From assembly GCA_045863335.1 (NCBI GenBank), contig BTVY01000006.1, positions 32,001-96,000 of the forward strand: DNA of 64,000 nucleotides, written 5' to 3'. Shown here in pieces: positions 9,515 to 24,695 of this stretch. The notes below the pieces were generated by a model. It was not told where the DNA came from. It saw only the letters and a list, made by a program, of their open reading frames with translations, and searched no databases. This DNA comes from Candidatus Hydrogenedentota bacterium. Lineage in GTDB: Bacteria > Hydrogenedentota > Hydrogenedentia > Hydrogenedentales > SLHB01. Both the position numbers and the translations under genes were made by a program. Numbering within the stretch: position 1 is the first letter of the stretch; each line of letters begins with the position of its first letter.

Positions 9515-9696
9515 AGGGGAAAGTCGAACTCACAACACTATTCCCCATTAAATCGAAAATTGAAACACATGTTTCAGGTACCCCAACTCGACAATGGAAA
9601 ATTTTACAGCTAGAATCCGTCACGCAGTTCATTGGTGAGTACGCAAGCTCTAACCATTACGTTCGAGGGTCCACGCTATTGGGCGTAACATTGCAT

Positions 9697-12600
9697 TCAT
9701 GCGACCTGAATACGGTCCAATAGGGCCAAGGCTGCTCTACGATTCAGGTGGCTAGCTGCGTACTGTCCGGAGAAGTCCAAAATGCAGTCTAAGCAAGCTT
9801 TTCGACAAAGCAAGTCGTGATCGGCATTGACATAAAGAATCTCACGGGCCAAGGCCACCCATTCATTCCCGGCGCTTAGCAGTTCACGGCAATGGCCGGC
9901 CCCTCCAGGTGTTACGTCGTATACCACGATGCCAAGACTGGTATTTTGGAGTGGAATGAGTTCTACACCAAGTTCGCGCTCGTCCAATTCGAGGAGCCGC
10001 GAACCTGCCATGGCTAATGCGCGGCCTAAGGAGTAGACGGCGTCGTATACACCAAAGAGTGCGCCCGGTATCTCTAGTAGGATCATGTCTGTGAGTTCTT
10101 TTGCGGCTAGTACGCGATTCCGCAGAACCGGCGGGTTTGGATCTGTTCTGTCCCAACAAAAGCTGCGTGGATTCGCAGAAAATATTGAGGCATGTCTTTC
10201 AAAGTCCGCGGGCAGGCGCATTCGCCCTTGACCGACTTCGATCTCGCTCATGGAAAAGCCACATCTCGTGCACACAGCAAAACCACAATGATTTCTGCCC
10301 GCGTTCCTAACGAGCAGCTCCGCATCTTCACGATAAGTGATGCGAACTCCCTGCATGCCAGCGAAGTCTTGAATTGCTTCTCCGTCACCGCGTTCTGCGA
10401 ACGCAGTCGGACATACGGATTGTTCACCCACTCGTTCAAGATTGGTGCCCAAAGGCTGATCTTCCCAGCCGGCGGTCGTATATCCGAAACGCGGGAACAC
10501 TAGATGTTCCCTAGCAACCGGCTGACTACCGCATCTTGGACACTCCGCATCTGGAGATTGCCGAAGGTAGACATGGTCCTCCGGGCACCTCAATGCGAAA
10601 TATTGCAATCCCAGCGCCTGGTCCAAATTACTGTCCGTCCAGTGTTTTCTTAGGCCACGAGAAGTGGCAACTCGTCCACCAACCAGTACTTGCGACTCAG
10701 GAACGTATTCCCGCAGCGCAAGCATGGAACTGCGCTCGAGTTTGTACCTTTCGTCAGCTGCCGATTCACGGCTGCCATCGGGAACGGGACGGCGCACACT
10801 AAGGCTCTGGAGATTTATGGGAAATCCATACCTTGGCAAGAACCTGTGATCAGCAAGCCACTCGATGACCGTAATATCGGTGAGTGTTCGTACCATGTAC
10901 CGAATGGAATTTGCCTTAGCCATCTGTCGACCAATTTGACTTGTAGGAGTGGCTGGAATCTCGGACCACGCGTCTCGCAAGTAGTTGACGTCCTGTCGCC
11001 ATTCCGATATCGCAGCCCCGAAGGCGATTCGAGCATTATCCAAGAATTCTCGCCAATTCCGAGGCTCCATCGACGTTGACAAGCCAGTTCCTTCAGCAAG
11101 CCGTTGAAATCGAAATTGGAGTCCTCTGTCGTCGTCCTTCAGCTGATTGAGGAATTCAGCAAACGCCAATGCCACATCGACACCATCGTGTGGCCAACTG
11201 GGCCGTGGATCGGTTCTTCGTTTCCAATATGAAGGGGCATTTACTCCACAGAATTGGCCCATACGACCAAATGCGTGCATTGCTCCGGTTCTATCTGGTT
11301 GTCGAGCGCGCAAATACTCTGCCAACAATACGGCGTGAATATGTCTGCGTATCACTTGATTTCGATCCAAGAATACCGTCGGCTTTCTTAACGGACGCTT
11401 AAGAAAATCGCCAAACCTTAGAAAGACTTCTCTGTCGTATTCTGAATCTCTGGCAAAGGTGACGACTAGGGCGGAACCATCTGAGCGCCGTCCAGCCCGG
11501 CCGGCACGTTGCTTATGATTCGCCGGGCCAGGAGGCACGTTGCTCAGCAGAACCCCGTTTAACCCTCCGATATCAATACCAAGTTCCATGGTCGTAGTCG
11601 AAGAAAGGACGTTGCGGATACCCGCCTTGAACAATTCCTGAAGGCGCTTCGTTTCCTGTGGCGATAACTGGGCCGAGTGCTCCTCTGCCCATAGTCCCAT
11701 GCTAAGTATTGTCGAGTTCTTGTATTCGCGCCGTGCACGACCCCACCTTGGATCATTGTCAAGAAATTCCACATCGACGGGCCGTAAGCCCCCTTGACAC
11801 CCCGCGATCGGAGCCCATCCCAATGCCGAACTTGTCCATACCGTACCGGTCGCTTCGCACCAGAAGAGGGAAGCCGGACTTCTTACACTCAGCCGGTCGG
11901 CGAGGATTTGAACTGCTCTATCTTCTTCGTTGGGGCCGGTCTGATGGTGTTCTTCGCGCTTGAGCCACGAGAAACCGGTTTGCTGCAAAACTCCAAATAG
12001 TTGATCAAAGGCTGCGACCAATCCACGCTCCGAGAGTTGGTTGGCATCCGCCTCGGAACAACCGGCGGCGAGCATGACATTCTTCATGAAAATGCGTCTC
12101 AGTTGACCTCCGGTCGCCCCAACAAAAGCCCTGGCACCCCAACCACCGTGATTTCGAGTCAGCCATCGTCCGAGTAGGAGGTACTGTTCCATCCATTTGC
12201 GACTTGGGTTCTCTTGAGACCAATAGAGACAACCATCCATACGCACGGTATCCAACAACAACGTGAGCATGCTTGGCCAAACAGCCCCCAAAGCCTGTCT
12301 CGCCGAAGAAGGCAATTCCTCTTCCAATCGTGGTGGAAGCTGGAGATTGGAAATACCGGGATACACTACTTCGACTAGACCGACCGATTCCGCCGAGGGC
12401 TGGCGCTTGAGAGGACGCTGCAATTCTTTTGCAACCAACGCCTCTGCCTGGGCGCGCACTGCGTCCCTGTTCCTATTCCAGTCAGACTGCGCATATGATC
12501 TCGCTTGGTGGGATTCAGCTTGGGAACGGTCCAAGAGCTCTGCCAACTCGTCACGGCGAGCTACAAGCGATGCGAAATCCACAAACGGAGTACCGGCCCG

Positions 12601-14901
12601 TGCGTGTTCGAGCTGTTCACGTTTCTGAGTCAGCTCACGCGCCAAGTGCTCCCGTAGACCTGGCTCAATCGCTGTGTTGCGAAGCTGGTCCGTAATCCTT
12701 TCGATGTCGCTCTCAAGATACTGAGAAGTTTCCGTACTAGTTAGTTCGCCAACGCATCGCGCAATGGCGGCTCGAACTACTTGAATTTCGTGCTGTTGCG
12801 TAAGCAGCGGACCAAGCCTGGCCGCTGAAGCGCGAGAATCGCTGAAGCAGAGCAGTCGTCGTCCTCCGCCAGGCTTCCAGTTGCTGGAAGGTCCAGGAAT
12901 TGGGGGAAGACCATGAAGCACGGTTTCCGCGGCTACCGAAAGAGCAAAAGGCCGTCCACCGACCAACGCCCTGCAAGTATGCCGCCATTCTGGTTCCAAG
13001 TCTTCGGCTTCCGGTATGGTCCACTCAGACCCGCAAGTAGGGCACAACTGGGGAGAATGGACGTCCTCTCGGTATGCTTTCCACAAACTGACGCCTTGTG
13101 ATCCATGTCCACGGACTTCTCCAAGATGCGGATCGACAACGACTTCCTCGAGCTCTGAACGTCCGCGGTTCGCCAGCAAGTAATACGTTCGATGGGTGGG
13201 TGAGTCGGCAAAATAGCCGGGCTGCAGAGTCGACGTATCCTGATTCTCATGTGCGGCAAGTGCCCACTCGCCGCAATTATCGCACCGGTGAATAGGCAGC
13301 AATAGATGCTCACAGTAGCGGCATACATCCGCGTATGGCTGAAGACATCCAATCGAATCAATGCGGGTACGTTGAGGTCCTGGGCAGCTAGGATTTAGGC
13401 AGACCGACAGTCCTTCTGGCGCTCGGACAAGTAAGTGGAGACGATGAGGCACCAATGGTAGGTCAGATGCCTGCTCGCGTGCAGCCGCGGAAAGACGAAG
13501 TAAAGCGATGGTGGCTCTTCGTTCCTCTATGCCGTCGTTTCCCTCAAAAAGCCTACGCGCCAGTTCTCCGAGGCTTAGAACATTGGCGTCTTCCTCGGAC
13601 AGTGTCTCGGCTAGCTTCCGAATAAGCGGGGACCGTTGAAGTGTTGCATGAAGGAAGCGTGCTGGACAGGCACTTTGAGACTCTAAGGCGGTTTCGATTA
13701 CAGACCGGGCTACTAGAAGAGATACGAGCCCTTTAAGCCTTTCAACGGAGTTTTCGTCATTCTCAACGAGTTGTTCATCCGAAGCAAGTGTCTCAAAATC
13801 GATGCCCGAGGATCGGGCCAATTGCGGAACGCCATTCGAAGTATCTGGCGGAGCTTCAGGCTCCTCGAAAAGTTGTCTGGCGTAGCGACCCTGAATTACG
13901 TGCGTTTGGCTATGGCTATCGGAGAGAATCTCAGACGCAAACTTCCTCAATTCGCCAACAGAACCGCCAAGTGTCGCCGACGTGGCGATTTGCAGGACAT
14001 CTTCGACTGAAACGCCACACCGCTCGCGCACCCTTCTCAACAGCATTGCGATCTCGGCAGCCAGGGAGCCGCTGTAGAGGTGGGCTTCGTCTAAGATGAC
14101 GCACCGAAGATCGGGCCCGAAGAATCGGCTGTCTTGTGGTCTACACAGCATGTACTCAAGCATTGAGTAGTTAGTTATCAGGATGTCAGGAACCCGACTA
14201 AACGGCGGCGAAGCTATGGGGCGGCCATCAGTGGTCTCATACCCGCGGGCCTGCTGTCGTGTCCGAAGTCGACAAGGCTCCCACTCGGGTTCTCCGCGTT
14301 TGTTGGCTAATCGAACGTCTTCGGGAGTTTCACTCGTGAAGTGAAATACGGTAACGTCGCTCTGGCCTCGTAACCACTGGTAGAGGCGATCGACTTGGTC
14401 GGCGACCAAAGCGTTCATTGGATAGAGAATAAGACAGCGTACGCCGCCTTCGGATTGGCGTTCTGGGGCGCTCCATAAGTCGCCAAGGATAGGAAGAAGA
14501 AAGGCTTCCGTCTTTCCTAAACCCGTTCCTGCAGTAATGACTACAGAAGGGCGAGAAACACTGTCCCTGGACGATAGACGGAGCGCTTCAGCTTGATGAC
14601 TGTAGAGCAACCGGTTGATGGGGAACACGTCGTGGGCTTCGATATGCTCGCATAACGACTTTGGGAAGTATCCGTCTTGAGTTAGGGATTCAAGCGTATC
14701 GGAGCCGACTTCCCCTGAGAAAGCCCCTTCAACCCAGAGTTCGCTTACCAATCCTCCCGATTCTCCGGGGCCGGACCAGACAGATTCAGCGGCATCTGCA
14801 ATTTGGGCATCTCGAAAATGGTTCTCCGCTACGGCAAGTTCGACTAAGCGCGTTCGTACGTCTTTGACCAGCTTTAGCGCATCGACATGACTCAAACCCA
14901 A
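9697..14901 (-). CDS. Large SF2 DEAD/DEAH helicase with Zn-binding motifs and C-terminal DUF1998 (Druantia DruE-like)
   Basis: Q motif LYSHQ; Walker A AGTGLGKTE; YPMNALVADQ; TNYSMLEYML; DEAH; SAT; CxxC pairs; FSDSR; TTTMELGIDIG; QRAGRAGR; DUF1998-type 'YDVTPGGAG...CRKACLDC'. TTG start is 14901 or 14895, the latter overlapping the upstream stop. Confidence 0.88.
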   Translation of the reverse strand: MGLSHVDALKLVKDVRTRLVELAVAENHFRDAQIADAAESVWSGPGESGGLVSELWVEGAFSGEVGSDTLESLTQDGYFPKSLCEHIEAHDVFPINRLLYSHQAEALRLSSRDSVSRPSVVITAGTGLGKTEAFLLPILGDLWSAPERQSEGGVRCLILYPMNALVADQVDRLYQWLRGQSDVTVFHFTSETPEDVRLANKRGEPEWEPCRLRTRQQARGYETTDGRPIASPPFSRVPDILITNYSMLEYMLCRPQDSRFFGPDLRCVILDEAHLYSGSLAAEIAMLLRRVRERCGVSVEDVLQIATSATLGGSVGELRKFASEILSDSHSQTHVIQGRYARQLFEEPEAPPDTSNGVPQLARSSGIDFETLASDEQLVENDENSVERLKGLVSLLVARSVIETALESQSACPARFLHATLQRSPLIRKLAETLSEEDANVLSLGELARRLFEGNDGIEERRATIALLRLSAAAREQASDLPLVPHRLHLLVRAPEGLSVCLNPSCPGPQRTRIDSIGCLQPYADVCRYCEHLLLPIHRCDNCGEWALAAHENQDTSTLQPGYFADSPTHRTYYLLANRGRSELEEVVVDPHLGEVRGHGSQGVSLWKAYREDVHSPQLCPTCGSEWTIPEAEDLEPEWRHTCRALVGGRPFALSVAAETVLHGLPPIPGPSSNWKPGGGRRLLCFSDSRASAARLGPLLTQQHEIQVVRAAIARCVGELTSTETSQYLESDIERITDQLRNTAIEPGLREHLARELTQKREQLEHARAGTPFVDFASLVARRDELAELLDRSQAESHQARSYAQSDWNRNRDAVRAQAEALVAKELQRPLKRQPSAESVGLVEVVYPGISNLQLPPRLEEELPSSARQALGAVWPSMLTLLLDTVRMDGCLYWSQENPSRKWMEQYLLLGRWLTRNHGGWGARAFVGATGGQLRRIFMKNVMLAAGCSEADANQLSERGLVAAFDQLFGVLQQTGFSWLKREEHHQTGPNEEDRAVQILADRLSVRSPASLFWCEATGTVWTSSALGWAPIAGCQGGLRPVDVEFLDNDPRWGRARREYKNSTILSMGLWAEEHSAQLSPQETKRLQELFKAGIRNVLSSTTTMELGIDIGGLNGVLLSNVPPGPANHKQRAGRAGRRSDGSALVVTFARDSEYDREVFLRFGDFLKRPLRKPTVFLDRNQVIRRHIHAVLLAEYLRARQPDRTGAMHAFGRMGQFCGVNAPSYWKRRTDPRPSWPHDGVDVALAFAEFLNQLKDDDRGLQFRFQRLAEGTGLSTSMEPRNWREFLDNARIAFGAAISEWRQDVNYLRDAWSEIPATPTSQIGRQMAKANSIRYMVRTLTDITVIEWLADHRFLPRYGFPINLQSLSVRRPVPDGSRESAADERYKLERSSMLALREYVPESQVLVGGRVATSRGLRKHWTDSNLDQALGLQYFALRCPEDHVYLRQSPDAECPRCGSQPVAREHLVFPRFGYTTAGWEDQPLGTNLERVGEQSVCPTAFAERGDGEAIQDFAGMQGVRITYREDAELLVRNAGRNHCGFAVCTRCGFSMSEIEVGQGRMRLPADFERHASIFSANPRSFCWDRTDPNPPVLRNRVLAAKELTDMILLEIPGALFGVYDAVYSLGRALAMAGSRLLELDERELGVELIPLQNTSLGIVVYDVTPGGAGHCRELLSAGNEWVALAREILYVNADHDLLCRKACLDCILDFSGQYAASHLNRRAALALLDRIQVA

Positions 14902-17849
14902 ATCCCCTCCTCTCCGCTTAGCGACAACCAGTAGCAGCAGATGCTCGTGGAAATATACTTCCTACCGGACGGAGATTCCCCAACTTTCGAGATGTCATCA
15001 CAATCTTCATCATTGGGCTTCCAAACTTGGTCGCGCATCGATACTGTCCAGGCGCCCACCAAGTCCGACAGATAGTCAGGTTCCAACTGTGCAAATTGTG
15101 CAGCCGCTTCCTCTAGGTATCCGAGTCGTCGTCTGATTTGTTGATTGCTACTGGTTTTGGCAAGCCCCAATCCTGTGCATACGAATGCACGCAGCAAATC
15201 AAGGGTCTTGGTCTTATCGCGTTTCAAAAAGTGCTCGAGACACTTCCACACCAATATGGGGGACACTTTAGAAAGAGTGTCCAATATTCCTATACATCGT
15301 TCCGGGTTGTGCATACTTCCGTCCCAGTTTGTCAGCGCACCAATCGCATCTCTAGCGTGCGCGGCAGGAAAAGTAGTCCAGAGATAGGTTCTGACAACGA
15401 GGTCGATCCCCGAGATATGCTCGTGCTCGTGAAGGCCGGCCGGAAGACTTGAGTTGACAAGCCACGCGCGAAGAAATCGGCACGGAGAGTGGATAACTTT
15501 TGGGGCAAGCATCTTTGCCAGAGTGGGGTGCAACACTGGGGCTCTCAACCATTTCAACATTGCGTGATCAGTCTCTGACAGATCCTGTCGACCCTCTATA
15601 TACTTTCCGATTCCCTCAAGATCCCACCACGCTCCTAGCCAATACCCTTTCCATGTCAATGCAACCGCCATCGGATAATCCGGAAGATCAAGCTTCCATA
15701 CGTGGTTTGTCGAGCTCTTCAGAATGCGGTCAGTTGGTAGCTTCTTTGGGCGCCCGTTGGCCCCGCCCTCAGCTGTCCAATACCACAAACTGTAGCCTTC
15801 ATCGCCCGCCTCGCCGTACTCCTTCGCGATTGATAAGTGCAGGCTAGCAGGACTACCCAACATGGAAGGCTGAAAGTTTGCGACGCACCCCCGGTCGACG
15901 GACCGCACGTCCAATTGATAGATTCTCTCATCCGAGTGCACACTTAATGACTCTCCGAATCCTGAAAGGTCAGAAAGCACCATGCGCCCGTGTCTTGCTC
16001 TTCCGGCGCGATGATGACCTTCGTGCACGTAGGGATTGGGTGTTGCGTCAGGGACCCACACTCGTAGAAGCGAAGTGCCCTCAGAGCGGTTTACCTCTGC
16101 TCCGGGCTTCAGAGGATGCAGTTTCAGATGGCTAGCGTCTTGCCGGTCGTCGGCGCGCAAGATCGCTGCGGCGGCTAGTTTGAATTCCAGCCTCGGCTTG
16201 AGAGCTCTTGAGCTTCCATTGCACATAGTCCTCACTCGAACTGCGCGTTGTCGGCTTGCTAACTCCGGCGTCAAGCTGATTTCGTTGGGCGTTTCCCACA
16301 TCCCGTCCCCAACTGCATGTAGGTCATACGCCTTGTTATGAATGAGGAGACGCACAGAATCCAGATCGGTAGATAGGCCAGAGACAAGTAGTCGCGTCCG
16401 GTCGTTCAAATTAAATGTGGAATTTCCCGGAGTGGAGAGAACCGGTGTAGCCGTCGTCGGCGCATCTTCAACTTGGCGCAAAGGCTGCCAGAGGATGAAT
16501 TCCTCGTAAATTACTGCAACACTATTTTCCAGTGGCGCTGGTAAGCGTATGGCCTTCCGCGCCACCCCTGCTCGCTCGAAAACTTCCAGCGGTTGGCAGC
16601 CTTCAATAACGCACTTTTTGTCACAGATGAGAGCGTAGTGGCGAGCCGGCTCTAACCTCTCCTCTCCGGCGCGCACCAGTGTCTTCTTGTCGAGATCAAA
16701 TACCAAAACTTCACTTGTCAGTCCCGAGTCTGTAAGGTCCCACTCTACGATGTGTTCACCCCTTTTCGACGAAAGCGCCAGCACACTTGGAGACAAGTTA
16801 GGCGTTCTCCCAGCTGACTGAGGTTCCGCGTAGATTTCTTCGTCACCCGTATAGCCGCCGTTCGATTGGCGGAGCCAACGAGCGACTTTTTTCGTGTCCA
16901 CGTACACATCGATCTCTGGAACATCTGTTTGCTCCTGGATGCGGGCTTTGTCGAGGCGAATCTGAATTCTCGGCTCCCCGCCAAGTGGCCAATGAAGCTC
17001 GATATCTGCAATTGGCGTAAACGCTTCGTCGGTATCGCACTCTCCTCCAGTGGTCGATTCGGCATCGCCATGCCAGTCACCGATGCCAAGCGTCTCAATG
17101 CGAGACTTGGCCTCAACCAATAGGGAGTCTATCCAGGACGGTTGGACCCAAGGACTCGATCGCAATACTTGTCGCGCTTCTTCATCTCCGATTAGGCCGC
17201 GCCTATACTGGATGAAGGCTCGCCACATGGACTTGAATGATTCTGAGGCGAGTTCTGGCAGGTCCATTTCGCCATTCAGGTACCGAACCGTGTGGGGTCT
17301 ACCAAGATTCACTAACCATTCTGCTAATCGATTTCTTGCGCCGTGGTACGTAAAGCCGTATTGCAGTTTGATAGTGATAAACCATTGCTGGGTGCCTTCG
17401 ACATCCATAACATGTCGAAGGTTCAATGCTCGAACCGCATCTTCAATCAAGATCTTGGTGGTGGAGGACGGTTGCCCGTTCGAGAGAAACAGTTCTCTCC
17501 TAAGCGCGTGCGAATCGGGTAAAATGCGGCGAACAGCAGGCCATACGGAATCTTCGTTACTCTCACGCCGACATGCTTCGGCACCGGCGCAGATTAGCAG
17601 TCCGCCGAACATCTGTCGGTAGCTTGCGTACGATTCTCCGGTAAACCGCGAAAAGACAACGGACTTTATCCAGTTCGCGGTACTGTCCGGAGTCAGATGC
17701 AGGAACCACTTGTGCAACCAATCAACCTCATGGTCCTCAAGCTGTAGTTCAGCCATAGACCATGGGCGGTTATACTTCATTCCCGCGTCATGCAATTGCC
17801 GAAAGACTTGCTCCAACGTTGCCAATTGGGGACAAAGATCTTGCCACAC
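14892..17849 (-). CDS. 985-aa hypothetical protein translationally coupled to the helicase (candidate Druantia partner, DruH/DruF-like position)
   Basis: Long ORF whose stop overlaps the helicase start; same atypical composition; no catalytic motif recognised. The partner assignment rests on size and gene order. Confidence 0.7.
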   Translation of the reverse strand: MWQDLCPQLATLEQVFRQLHDAGMKYNRPWSMAELQLEDHEVDWLHKWFLHLTPDSTANWIKSVVFSRFTGESYASYRQMFGGLLICAGAEACRRESNEDSVWPAVRRILPDSHALRRELFLSNGQPSSTTKILIEDAVRALNLRHVMDVEGTQQWFITIKLQYGFTYHGARNRLAEWLVNLGRPHTVRYLNGEMDLPELASESFKSMWRAFIQYRRGLIGDEEARQVLRSSPWVQPSWIDSLLVEAKSRIETLGIGDWHGDAESTTGGECDTDEAFTPIADIELHWPLGGEPRIQIRLDKARIQEQTDVPEIDVYVDTKKVARWLRQSNGGYTGDEEIYAEPQSAGRTPNLSPSVLALSSKRGEHIVEWDLTDSGLTSEVLVFDLDKKTLVRAGEERLEPARHYALICDKKCVIEGCQPLEVFERAGVARKAIRLPAPLENSVAVIYEEFILWQPLRQVEDAPTTATPVLSTPGNSTFNLNDRTRLLVSGLSTDLDSVRLLIHNKAYDLHAVGDGMWETPNEISLTPELASRQRAVRVRTMCNGSSRALKPRLEFKLAAAAILRADDRQDASHLKLHPLKPGAEVNRSEGTSLLRVWVPDATPNPYVHEGHHRAGRARHGRMVLSDLSGFGESLSVHSDERIYQLDVRSVDRGCVANFQPSMLGSPASLHLSIAKEYGEAGDEGYSLWYWTAEGGANGRPKKLPTDRILKSSTNHVWKLDLPDYPMAVALTWKGYWLGAWWDLEGIGKYIEGRQDLSETDHAMLKWLRAPVLHPTLAKMLAPKVIHSPCRFLRAWLVNSSLPAGLHEHEHISGIDLVVRTYLWTTFPAAHARDAIGALTNWDGSMHNPERCIGILDTLSKVSPILVWKCLEHFLKRDKTKTLDLLRAFVCTGLGLAKTSSNQQIRRRLGYLEEAAAQFAQLEPDYLSDLVGAWTVSMRDQVWKPNDEDCDDISKVGESPSGRKYISTSICCYWLSLSGEEGIWV

Positions 17850-18126
17850 GAGTACTTATCCCGCTAGTCGTTTAATTTCTCCGTCGCTGTATCTCTCTCA
17901 CCTAATCGGTGGACCTCGGCACAGCTCAGGGGAATCTGTACCGTAGTCGGCACGTCAATGGGTTCGTCAATCGACCTTCGCTCGTATCCGATACCGAAAA
18001 TTATCGTCTCCTGACGCGACTGTCCTCTTTTTTGCCATGTGCCTGAATCCTCGACACGTCTGGAGACTGCACATTGAACTCGCTCCCATAATGTCGGCTG
18101 TTCTCGAAGTCCGTTCTCCCACTAGG

Positions 18127-18155
18127 AGTCTATGAAAAGCGGATATATATGTCAA
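18127..18155 (-). promoter_or_regulatory. Sigma70-type promoter for the helicase operon
   Basis: Minus strand reads TTGACA-N17-TAGACT (-35 at 18155-18150, -10 at 18132-18127), just inside the right island border. Confidence 0.75.
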
Positions 18156-22671: not shown

Positions 22672-23529
22672 CTATTCCAGACTTGCAAGACCATCGAGGA
22701 ACCATCGCTGGGCCGGAAATTGGCCCTCCCTCAGGAATACTACATGGCCGTCCAGGTAGAGCACGTTGATGCCGCCAGGGATGTGGTGCTCCAGGGAGCG
22801 GTCGAACATGATGGGAATCTGGTCGGCCCGAACGGGCAACCCCATGCCCGAGCTGTCCTTCAGCCGCACAAAGTGGTCCGTGCCGGCCGTACCGGCTCCC
22901 GCTGCTGCCACGAGATCGCCTTCGAATCCGCCGCCGCTTTGCTGTTGCTGACGGTAGGCGTCAATAAATGCGCGCGCTTCGGTCTCGTTCGTGACGGCAT
23001 AGCCGAGGTAGAAGTAGCTCTCGTCACCAATGGTCTCCGGTGTTTCCATCACCTGCGTCACATCGGAATCGCTGGGGCAATTGAAGATACTCGGGGTGGC
23101 CAGATACTCCGGGTAGATTGCGCTCGCCGAGGGCGCAAACTCGCCCGGCACATCCGACAGCGGCGGAAGCGCGTGGTCGTGCTCATTCGCCCACATCATG
23201 TAGACGAGGCCCATCTGCTTGAGGTTGTTCTGGCATGACGCCCTGCGCGCCGCCTCGCGCGCCCGCGCGAGAGCCGGGAGCAGGATTGCCGCCAGAATAC
23301 CAACGACGACAAATAACCCGACCACACCCACGGCGCCGAGAATTGCGGCGATCAGGCACCCGTTCTGATTGCCGGAAGTTTTTCTCGGCCTGCCGGGCAA
23401 GGGTGCGCCCACCCGAGGCGGCGGCTGATAGCGCTGGTCTCCGGGGGGAATCGGAGGCTTCGGTGGATTGCTATCCGCCAGAAGGGGAATCGTTCGCTGG
23501 TATCCGGCTTCGGGTGTGCTGTCGGTCAT
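22672..23529 (-). CDS. DUF1559 protein with Pro-rich N-terminus and TM helix (no prepilin cleavage site)
   Basis: '[30 protein letters not shown]', 'IFNCPSD' and the H-X9-DG motif '[16 protein letters not shown]'. Confidence 0.85.
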
Positions 23530-23678
23530 GCTGCTTCTCCCTCCATCCGCGACATGCCCCCACGTGTGCTCGTGCACCATGATACCAAATCACCGGGCCG
23601 CAGCGAAGAGGGAAGGGGCCGCCACCCGCGTTGGGCGACGACCCCGGGAAAAGGGCACTGCAGTTAGGCCGTTGAAGT

Positions 23679-24575
23679 TTAGAATCCGTCGAAGGGTCGG
23701 TTGAAGCGCCCGAAGGTGCGTGCGCTGTCCTCCGTCATGGGGAACTTCTCACTGGGATACCGTAAGAAATTCACGTGACCATCCAGATACAGCACGTTTC
23801 CACCTCCCGGTACGTGGGCGAAGTCCTTCGTAGCCGTCGAGATGTGGTCCCACACGATGGGAATTTCGCTGGATGCCTGGGCGCTGCCCGCGGGATTGTT
23901 GATGTCGGTGATCAGGAAACGTTCCACGCCTTGACGGAGCCGCAGGATAGTATCGCCACCGCCGACCTGAGTACCGGCGTACGTTGACGAGACTTCGAAA
24001 TCCTCGTCGCTGGCTTCACCATTTGTATCGAAATTCTCTTGGGCCAATTCACCCCAAGGAGTATTCATATACTCCGCTTCCGAGAACCGGCCGCCCACAT
24101 CGGAACCCACCGTGCCGACAAGGGGTCCGAGGATGTTGACGTCCTCGGTGATGAGCCAGCCGGTGTAGTCATAGGGCTCCTTGGTGAACTCGCAGGGCTG
24201 CACGATGCCGTCGTCATTTCCTTTCTCCGCGTCGTAGCGCGCAACTGGGTTCGCTTGGGCGCCCCAGGAAGGACACCAGACGACGTTCACGTCCGTAAGG
24301 TACTCCGGATACACGGCAGGCCCGCTGAAGATCATCTCGGGGCTGAGGGCTCCGCTGCAGGTGAAGGTCTGGCGCGGCGGCAGTTTCTGGCCTTTGCTCT
24401 CATTGGAGTACATGGTGAGCACAAGCCCGATCTGTTTCAGGTTGTTCTGGCAGCTCGCGCGACGCGCGGCTTCGCGTGCACGGGCCAGAGCCGGCAACAA
24501 AATCGCCGCCAGAATACCGATGATGGCAATGACGACGAGCAATTCAATGAGGGTAAACCCGAGAGAGCGTTTCAT
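23679..24575 (-). CDS. Prepilin-type N-terminal cleavage/methylation DUF1559 protein
   Basis: '[43 protein letters not shown]' and '[15 protein letters not shown]'. Confidence 0.92.
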
Positions 24576-24665
24576 GGCGCACAATCCTTTCAATTCAGTC
24601 AAGACGAAGACAACCCCACGTCGAGCAAGCGCACATAACGCATGTTTTGTATGCTGAACAAAAGG

Positions 24666-24695
24666 ATTATGCAATAAGGTTATGCTCTAAGTCAA
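24666..24695 (-). promoter_or_regulatory. Possible sigma70 promoter for the prepilin-like gene
   Basis: Minus strand TTGACT-N18-CATAAT in an AT-rich intergenic stretch with repeated GCATAA/TTATGC. Confidence 0.45.

Follow-up and report, generated by a model that had tools for sequence, protein, structure and literature searches.

Type III Druantia pairs the helicase DruE with a second large protein, DruH. In type III-A, DruE carries two C-terminal PLD-like domains, whereas Himpich et al. describe III-B as DruH together with a DruE that lacks them (10.64898/2026.05.13.724758). Bell et al. (2025) reported a separate type III-like branch whose members usually lack a nuclease, and GIH50614.1 is a published III-B representative (10.1101/2025.09.15.676423). 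In M. smegmatis, DruH and a 1667-aa DruE described as having helicase and DUF1998 domains only have been reported to protect against phage (PMC13316683). Here, we analyzed a two-gene locus on a 64,000-nucleotide stretch of DNA (the window) from a Candidatus Hydrogenedentota bacterium (assembly GCA_045863335.1, contig BTVY01000006.1, positions 32,001 to 96,000). The genes encode a large helicase and, upstream of it, a 985-aa partner protein. We consider it likely that they form a compact, PLD-less type III Druantia (III-B-like), a predicted anti-phage operon that was acquired horizontally. The initial annotation of the locus had proposed either a divergent two-component Druantia or a related new system. 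The first proposal agrees with our finding of a type III DruE next to a probable remote DruH, and we rejected the second because a PLD-less DruE with DruH has already been described as III-B.

Judged from its sequence, the helicase is a type III DruE. Its best PADLOC model was DruE3 (E value of 5.7e-202, 672 bits, compared with 489 bits for DruE1), but ARMADA-like helicases likewise score best on DruE3, and the PADLOC rank alone is therefore insufficient for a type III assignment. In a FastTree phylogeny of 29 helicases and an IQ-TREE phylogeny of 22 of those 29, the clade of this helicase was sister to the DruEs paired with recognized DruH, with an SH-type support of 99 in both trees; the outgroup labels were inferred from neighboring genes, sampling was thin, and long branches were flagged. 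Druantia types I, II, and IV and ARMADA were considered and rejected, as their accessory genes are absent and they are placed elsewhere in the tree. These systems and DISARM DrmAB share with our locus a YprA-family helicase with an MZB/DUF1998 domain, but they are multigene operons (DruA-D, methylases, second helicases) of which no such component occurs in the window, and they have lower PADLOC scores and separate tree branches.

The anatomy of the helicase (residues numbered from a start at position 14895) is in line with this classification. The superfamily 2 (SF2) motifs are intact (Walker A at residue 123, DEAH at 269, SAT at 306, and motif VI at 1129), six CxxC motifs are present, and the Pfam DEAD, Helicase_C, and MZB (DUF1998) domains all score above the cutoff, bearing out the intact motifs, CxxC clusters, and terminal DUF1998 of the initial annotation. 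The Walker A and DEAH motifs and the arginines of motif VI align with E. coli DruE residues required for defense. Twenty Cys/His residues are conserved in 79 to 80 of 80 aligned helicases: all eight Cys of the double zinc module are invariant (80/80), the OB-region residues are kept in 79 to 80, and H1693, C1697, C1701, and C1704 of the MZB domain are present in all 80. By our grouping, which is inferred, these residues make up five putative zinc sites; E. coli DruE is reported to have as many (10.64898/2026.05.13.724758). The MZB pattern H-x3-C-x3-C-x2-C occurs in 80/80 members of the clade and in distant Roseomonas and Dehalococcoidia copies, and in these alignments the His-first site marks the clade apart from the Cys-first type III-A DruEs. 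Residues 721 to 765 form a helical, amphipathic insert that we equate, by alignment and not by structure, with the PD subdomain, which Hu et al. report to be type III specific and essential (10.64898/2026.05.12.722862).

The two C-terminal PLD-like domains of type III-A DruEs are missing. The best solved relative is PDB 9tu7 (a 2108-aa helicase; E value of 8.5e-78), and residues 10 to 1732 align to 14 to 1720 of its chain, leaving about 390 chain residues unmatched. The stop codon lies 32 residues past the last CxxC, compared with 391 to 418 in nine aligned PLD-length type III DruEs, so that the earlier remark of no obvious appended nuclease was correct. Among the 120 closest relatives, 105 end 33 to 50 aa after the motif, and the other 15, mostly partial, had no motif match; the longest of the 120 has at most 1753 aa. 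Elsewhere, on an Azotobacter plasmid (L034:8896-17415), a canonical DruH is accompanied by a DruE of 1705 aa, which stops 36 aa past the MZB motif. This DruE nests within type III-A in the tree and, on its sequence, appears to be an independent PLD loss or a truncation.

The partner is probably a remote DruH. Searches with its sequence against PADLOC, Pfam, and NCBIfam models and PDB sequences gave nothing meaningful. Among 50%-identity representatives, its family counts 578 relatives, of which 174 reach an E value of 1e-30 or better; the closest genome matches are Candidatus Hydrogenedentota, and here the lineage was found chiefly in uncultured members of the Hydrogenedentota, Acidobacteriota, Omnitrophota, and related groups. 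An AlphaFold2 (AF2) model built from 88 sequences (pLDDT of 92.7, pTM of 0.91) shows helices to residue 254, beta strands from 280 to 742, and helices from 744 to 977. A recognized DruH folded in the same way has the same order (helices to 243, strands from 254 to 793, and helices from 806 to 1086), and cryo-electron microscopy reports describe DruH as a helical or globular N-terminal domain (NTD), six immunoglobulin (Ig)-like domains, plus a C-terminal domain (CTD) (10.64898/2026.05.13.724313; 10.64898/2026.05.12.724681). Grouping the strands of the partner model suggests about five beta-sandwich units, compared with six in DruH. The "beta-rich repeats" noted earlier are thus tandem beta-sandwich domains and not sequence repeats. 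Foldseek and VIA-align searches with the model retrieved only generic Ig-like arrays (best Z score of 6.6); the recognized DruH model retrieved generic arrays likewise, and a DruH structure is therefore unlikely to be in the PDB copy searched.

The closest link to DruH lies in the NTD, which holds 17 of the 26 conserved polar positions of the partner family. Aligned by hhalign with a profile of 29 recognized DruHs, the NTD gave an E value of 0.0021 (0.00045 when swapped), a score reached by none of 40 block shuffles and none of 33 real-profile decoys (73/73 controls lower). To our reading of the sequences, the content of this alignment is stronger evidence than its score. Partner residues 85 to 167 fall on the N-terminal surface of E. 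coli DruH (residues 63 to 137) in which Wu et al. found E75, R78, R79, W88, T131, L132, and G137 to be essential (10.64898/2026.05.12.724681); these pair with E91, R94, R95, W103, T159, I160, and G165 of the partner. Pairing posteriors are 0.98 to 1.0 for the E/R/R positions, 0.8 to 0.9 for T/I/G, and 0.5 to 0.6 for W, and conservation among 88 family members is high for E91 (84), R94 (88), W103 (87), and G165 (86), with R95 in 57. An E. coli plasmid DruH (in L027) carries the residues of the mutant list of Wu et al. at identical numbers. In the ESM Atlas, feature neighbors of the partner carry YjiT domains (score of 0.92), which are present on 18 to 85% of members in each of the three best clusters; according to Wu et al., DruH belongs to YjiT (10.64898/2026.05.12.724681). 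The NTD alone returned, as a lead only, the name STY4851/ECs_5259 (score of 0.87); an STY4851 protein matches DruH3 at 1e-60. In precomputed Pfam annotations, none of 87 close partner relatives has a YjiT model, and the Pfam copy that we scanned may predate these models. The single-stranded DNA (ssDNA)/ATP pocket of E. coli DruH (R1031, H1062, R1064, and K1067) was dropped as a test of membership because it is not conserved among the 29 recognized DruHs.

Some members of the partner family depart from this layout. The N-terminal helical domain is duplicated in tandem in 4 of 150 relatives (P0058, P0072, P0074, and P0103), P0070 has a sigma-70 region 4 helix-turn-helix at its N terminus, and a Roseomonas plasmid partner (L023:5764-9975), homologous by profile comparison (99.9%), is longer by about 480 N-terminal residues, for which Pfam gave no match. 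The partner itself had no tblastn match against plasmids.

Compared with type III-A (E. coli, P. aeruginosa, and PDB 9tu7), the pair agrees in gene order, gene overlap, SF2 core, five putative zinc motifs, PD insert, and MZB domain, and the partner has the same layout and an N-terminal E-x-x-R-R...W...G surface. It differs in that DruE shares 24% identity with an E. coli DruE (363/1511), is about 370 aa shorter, lacks PLD1 and PLD2, and has His at the first MZB Cys position, and in that the partner is shorter (985 compared with about 1100 aa) and has no detectable similarity past residue 243. With III-B, the pair shares the content of only two genes, a compact PLD-less DruE, a branch beside III-A, and a large DruH-like partner upstream. 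No difference from III-B was established, the likeness being to its published description, and neither the PADLOC DruH3 models nor the Pfam copy that we scanned detect the partner family. Provided that the partner is DruH, the pair answers to the description of III-B. The M. smegmatis genes MSMEG_1253/1254 also overlap and encode the PLD-less 1667-aa DruE, and that report shows both defense and DruH-DruE interaction; its DruH has 1132 aa, and the comparison with our clade is by description only (PMC13316683).

One scan of GTDB gave 27 pattern matches, from which 22 related loci were derived. In 18 of these, the partner is followed by a DruE homologue; of the remaining four, three stop where the contig ends, and the last is a fragment lying next to a transposase. 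A full single-ORF DruE (ORF, open reading frame) of 1722 to 1773 aa occurs in nine loci, and no third conserved gene was seen across the 22. The pair has a GC content below that of its flanks in 10 of 12 loci, its occurrence is patchy over at least six phyla, and a distant version lies among insertion sequence elements on the Roseomonas plasmid. We scanned 118 of 184 called neighbor ORFs (the 118 lying within 5 kb), and some further ones, for other defense genes, which were found near 8 of the 22 loci (counted without a matched background): type III restriction-modification (L002), PDC-S01 (L003), PD-Lambda-3 (L005), a PsyrTA/ShosTA-like system (L009), PD-T7-1 (L012), Lamassu LmuA and Dsr1 (L014), RT-nitrilase (L017), and CRISPR I-E (L020). 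In L017, a 1470-aa reverse transcriptase-nitrilase (DRT1/UG5-UG6-like; L017:4564-8976) lies immediately upstream of the pair. In L009, a remnant (L009:10001-11019) adjoining the PsyrTA/ShosTA-like pair joins the first 232 aa of the partner directly to the C-terminal 107 aa of DruE, resembling the product of a deletion of about 7 kb.

The sequence results establish anatomy, conservation, and gene linkage; by analogy with the described systems, a mechanism can be proposed. DruE would dimerize through the PD insert, as reported for E. coli (10.64898/2026.05.12.722862), and wait until single-stranded or forked DNA becomes exposed as phage replicate or recombine. The E91/R94/R95 surface of the partner would engage the exposed DNA or a phage cue, and the C-terminal part would dock onto the DruE stalk, as the CTD of P. 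aeruginosa DruH is reported to do on forked DNA (10.64898/2026.05.13.724313). DruE would then load at the junction and unwind 3' to 5', blocking phage replication or circularization; loading at ssDNA or fork junctions and 3'-to-5' unwinding are reported for DruE relatives (10.64898/2026.05.13.724313; 10.64898/2026.05.13.724758). As this DruE has no nuclease, any cutting would have to come from the partner NTD, which we prefer as a nearly balanced choice, or from host nucleases. A complex prediction with partner residues 560 to 985 and DruE residues 650 to 1180 scored 0.58, compared with 0.00 for the best control, and gives weak support to the docking step. A score of 0.58 was attained by 116 of the 157 solved pairs and by 2 of the 215 mismatched ones; 18 of the 157 and both mismatches attained it with scores no higher than 0.60. 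The runs share at least 85% of contacts, with a partner pLDDT of at least 84, and the score may reflect likeness to a solved complex.

Several results weigh against the identity and function proposed here. The PADLOC DruH models do match recognized control DruHs, but they match neither the partner nor any of 48/48 relatives and 4/4 more, and the initial annotation had likewise been unable to name the partner from its sequence. The PADLOC check that it had suggested supported the helicase, with a strong DruE3 match, and not the partner. The NTD hhalign probability is 13 to 33%, whole-length profile comparisons of partner and DruH are weak (E values of 0.006 and 0.033), as are single-sequence comparisons, HMMER cross-searches between the two family profiles were negative (best E value of 0.023), and the Ig and C-terminal regions gave no signal, with 4/40 and 21/40 shuffles scoring as high. 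ESM scores of 0.87 to 0.92 were also attained by some shuffled proteins. Some essential DruH residues are not kept (W115 is L142, H85 is S101, and G136 is Y164 in the partner), and W30 and Q36 stand opposite DruH R29 and R35, which by spacing are probably R22 and K28 of P. aeruginosa. On the side of function, active-site mutants of the P. aeruginosa PLDs are reported to abolish defense (10.64898/2026.05.13.724313), and the window holds no other defense genes (PADLOC on 37 ORFs gave one weak, probably spurious match). Defense neighbors are also absent from 14/22 loci, several of which are short contigs.

In a rival reading, the partner would be an unrelated helical/Ig/helical protein that replaced DruH beside a type III-related DruE, in a separate Druantia-like two-gene system. 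The lack of a hidden Markov model (HMM) link to DruH in either direction, the lack of signal beyond the NTD, and a partner about 120 aa shorter than DruH would all fit this, as would another PLD-less two-gene pair (L038) whose partner matches neither family profile. We nevertheless regard replacement as unlikely, for the NTD alignment tops all 73 controls and falls on residues essential in DruH, the domain order is shared by the two AF2 models, the gene order is the same, the helicases are sisters, and divergence is reported to be faster in DruH than in DruE (10.64898/2026.05.12.724681). In L038 itself (L038:2540-10425), a 1069-aa protein with no match to either family profile, PADLOC, or Pfam is paired with a DruE-like helicase of 1559 aa that lacks PLDs and is placed outside the type III branch.

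W30 and Q36 also bear on whether this copy, although in frame, is impaired, for example through decay of a putative catalytic site in the partner. DruH mostly has R at these positions, and R or K occurs in 30/88 partner-family members at position 30 and in 39/88 at position 36; many relatives are moreover split or truncated (L001, L003, L008, L009, L010, L014, L015, L018, L019, and L021). Yet W is the commonest residue at position 30 (44/88) and Q the second at position 36 (13/88), no helicase motif is broken, E91, R94, R145, Q163, and R216 are likewise intact, there is a promoter candidate, and the split relatives may be assembly errors; we regard impairment as quite improbable. Very improbable is an action on plasmids or other mobile DNA, or in MrfA/YprA-like DNA repair, instead of on phage: YprA/MrfA relatives do include repair helicases, the window and 14/22 loci have no defense neighbors, and L011, L005, and L014 sit in conjugative or integrative elements, but the helicase groups with the defense branch and has its zinc modules and PD insert, repair YprAs have about 750 aa, the patchy spread and low GC suggest mobile defense cargo, and the type III pairs tested in the papers cited here all protect against phage.

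A compact type III Druantia is a known type of system and not a new kind of defense. The PADLOC v2.0.0 DruH models miss the whole partner family, and counts of type III Druantia built on them therefore omit it; with a DruH profile match as the detection rule, automated callers would not list this system, which a profile made from the partner-family alignment (A1) would fix. The preprints from 2026 disagree on the DNA-cutting subunit. One reports the PLDs as essential and DruH as a 3'-to-5' exonuclease (Loeff et al., 10.64898/2026.05.13.724313), two report the PLDs as dispensable in E. coli (Himpich et al., 10.64898/2026.05.13.724758; Hu et al., 10.64898/2026.05.12.722862), and one reports a DruH nuclease activity enhanced by dimerization (Wu et al., 10.64898/2026.05.12.724681). 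A lineage that is uniformly PLD-less yet keeps the essential N-terminal residues of DruH suggests that this surface is the conserved core. More tentatively, and with doubts outweighing our confidence, the pair could represent a large unrecognized sister lineage of III-A, distinct from the III-B branch already published and overlooked by DruH profiles, with the helical NTD of the partner (duplicated in some members) as the sole nuclease. If true, such a lineage would be a clean natural test of cutting by DruH versus cutting by the PLDs.

As annotated initially, the two ORFs overlap on the minus strand and are uninterrupted (Table 1). The helicase ORF was confirmed as open, but the start given for the 1734-aa product was not: the start is most likely the TTG at 14895, two codons downstream, because alignments of relatives begin at the residue encoded there and the database entry P0290, identical across the 621 residues scored, has 1732 aa. 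This start gives a 4-nt overlap with the partner stop, and the partner GTG agrees with the starts of relatives. The description of the segment as compositionally foreign also held. Its GC content is 0.535, compared with 0.612 for the remainder of the window; 75 other windows of 8.65 kb range from 0.595 to 0.617, with none lower, and GC at third codon positions (GC3) is 0.52 and 0.56 in the pair compared with 0.74 to 0.85 in the four nearest long genes. A search of the segment for tRNA, Rfam RNA, long flanking repeats, integrase, and terminators found none. It is flanked by a GNAT acetyltransferase gene and a heparinase/alginate-lyase-like gene. The promoter candidate is a consensus match only (one seen compared with 0.2 expected in shuffles).

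Table 1. Coordinates of features in the window (helicase residues counted from 14895)
Feature	Position	Strand	Remarks
Helicase ORF	9697-14901	-	1734 aa counted from TTG; open
DruE helicase gene	9697-14895	-	1732 aa from probable start; type III-like, without PLD domains
RecA1 domain: Walker A (K128), DEAH (269-272)	13876-14607	-	
Double zinc-binding module (putative): C499, C504, C525, C528; C538, C541, C618, C621	13033-13401	-	
Protruding helical insert, residues 721-765	12601-12735	-	Aligned to PD/dimerization subdomain P680-Q758 of E. coli DruE
RecA2 motifs V-VI; R1133, R1136	11485-11685	-	R1135, R1138 of E. coli by alignment
Two OB-region zinc-binding motifs (putative): C1437, H1441, C1452, C1455; C1542, C1545, H1568, C1580	10156-10587	-	
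MZB/DUF1998 domain	9781-10020	-	Pfam PF09369; His1693 at first of four type III-A Cys positions
Partner gene	14892-17849	-	985 aa from GTG; probable remote DruH
Partner N-terminal helical domain, residues 1-255	17085-17849	-	AF2 secondary structure
Conserved surface, residues 85-167 (E91, R94, R95, W103, R145, T159, I160, Q163, G165)	17349-17597	-	hhalign with posteriors
Partner tandem beta-sandwich (Ig-like) region, residues 280-742	15624-17012	-	AF2, fold searches
Partner C-terminal helical domain, residues 744-977	14919-15620	-	AF2
Low-GC inserted segment	9500-18190		Edges approximate; contents limited to the two genes plus a probable promoter
Sigma-70-like promoter candidate	18127-18155	-	10/12 consensus, 17-nt spacer, 278 nt upstream of partner

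A second promoter-like site (9588 to 9616, plus strand) is directed antisense into the 3' end of the helicase gene, with one seen compared with 0.4 by chance. A 40-codon ORF between the promoter candidate and the partner (17967 to 18089, minus strand) has no counterpart in related loci and is probably due to chance. The remaining genes of the window are metabolic or envelope genes; they include two adjoining DUF1559 prepilin-type genes (22672 to 24674, minus strand), and elsewhere the window encodes many glycoside hydrolases, a sulfatase, and dioxygenases.

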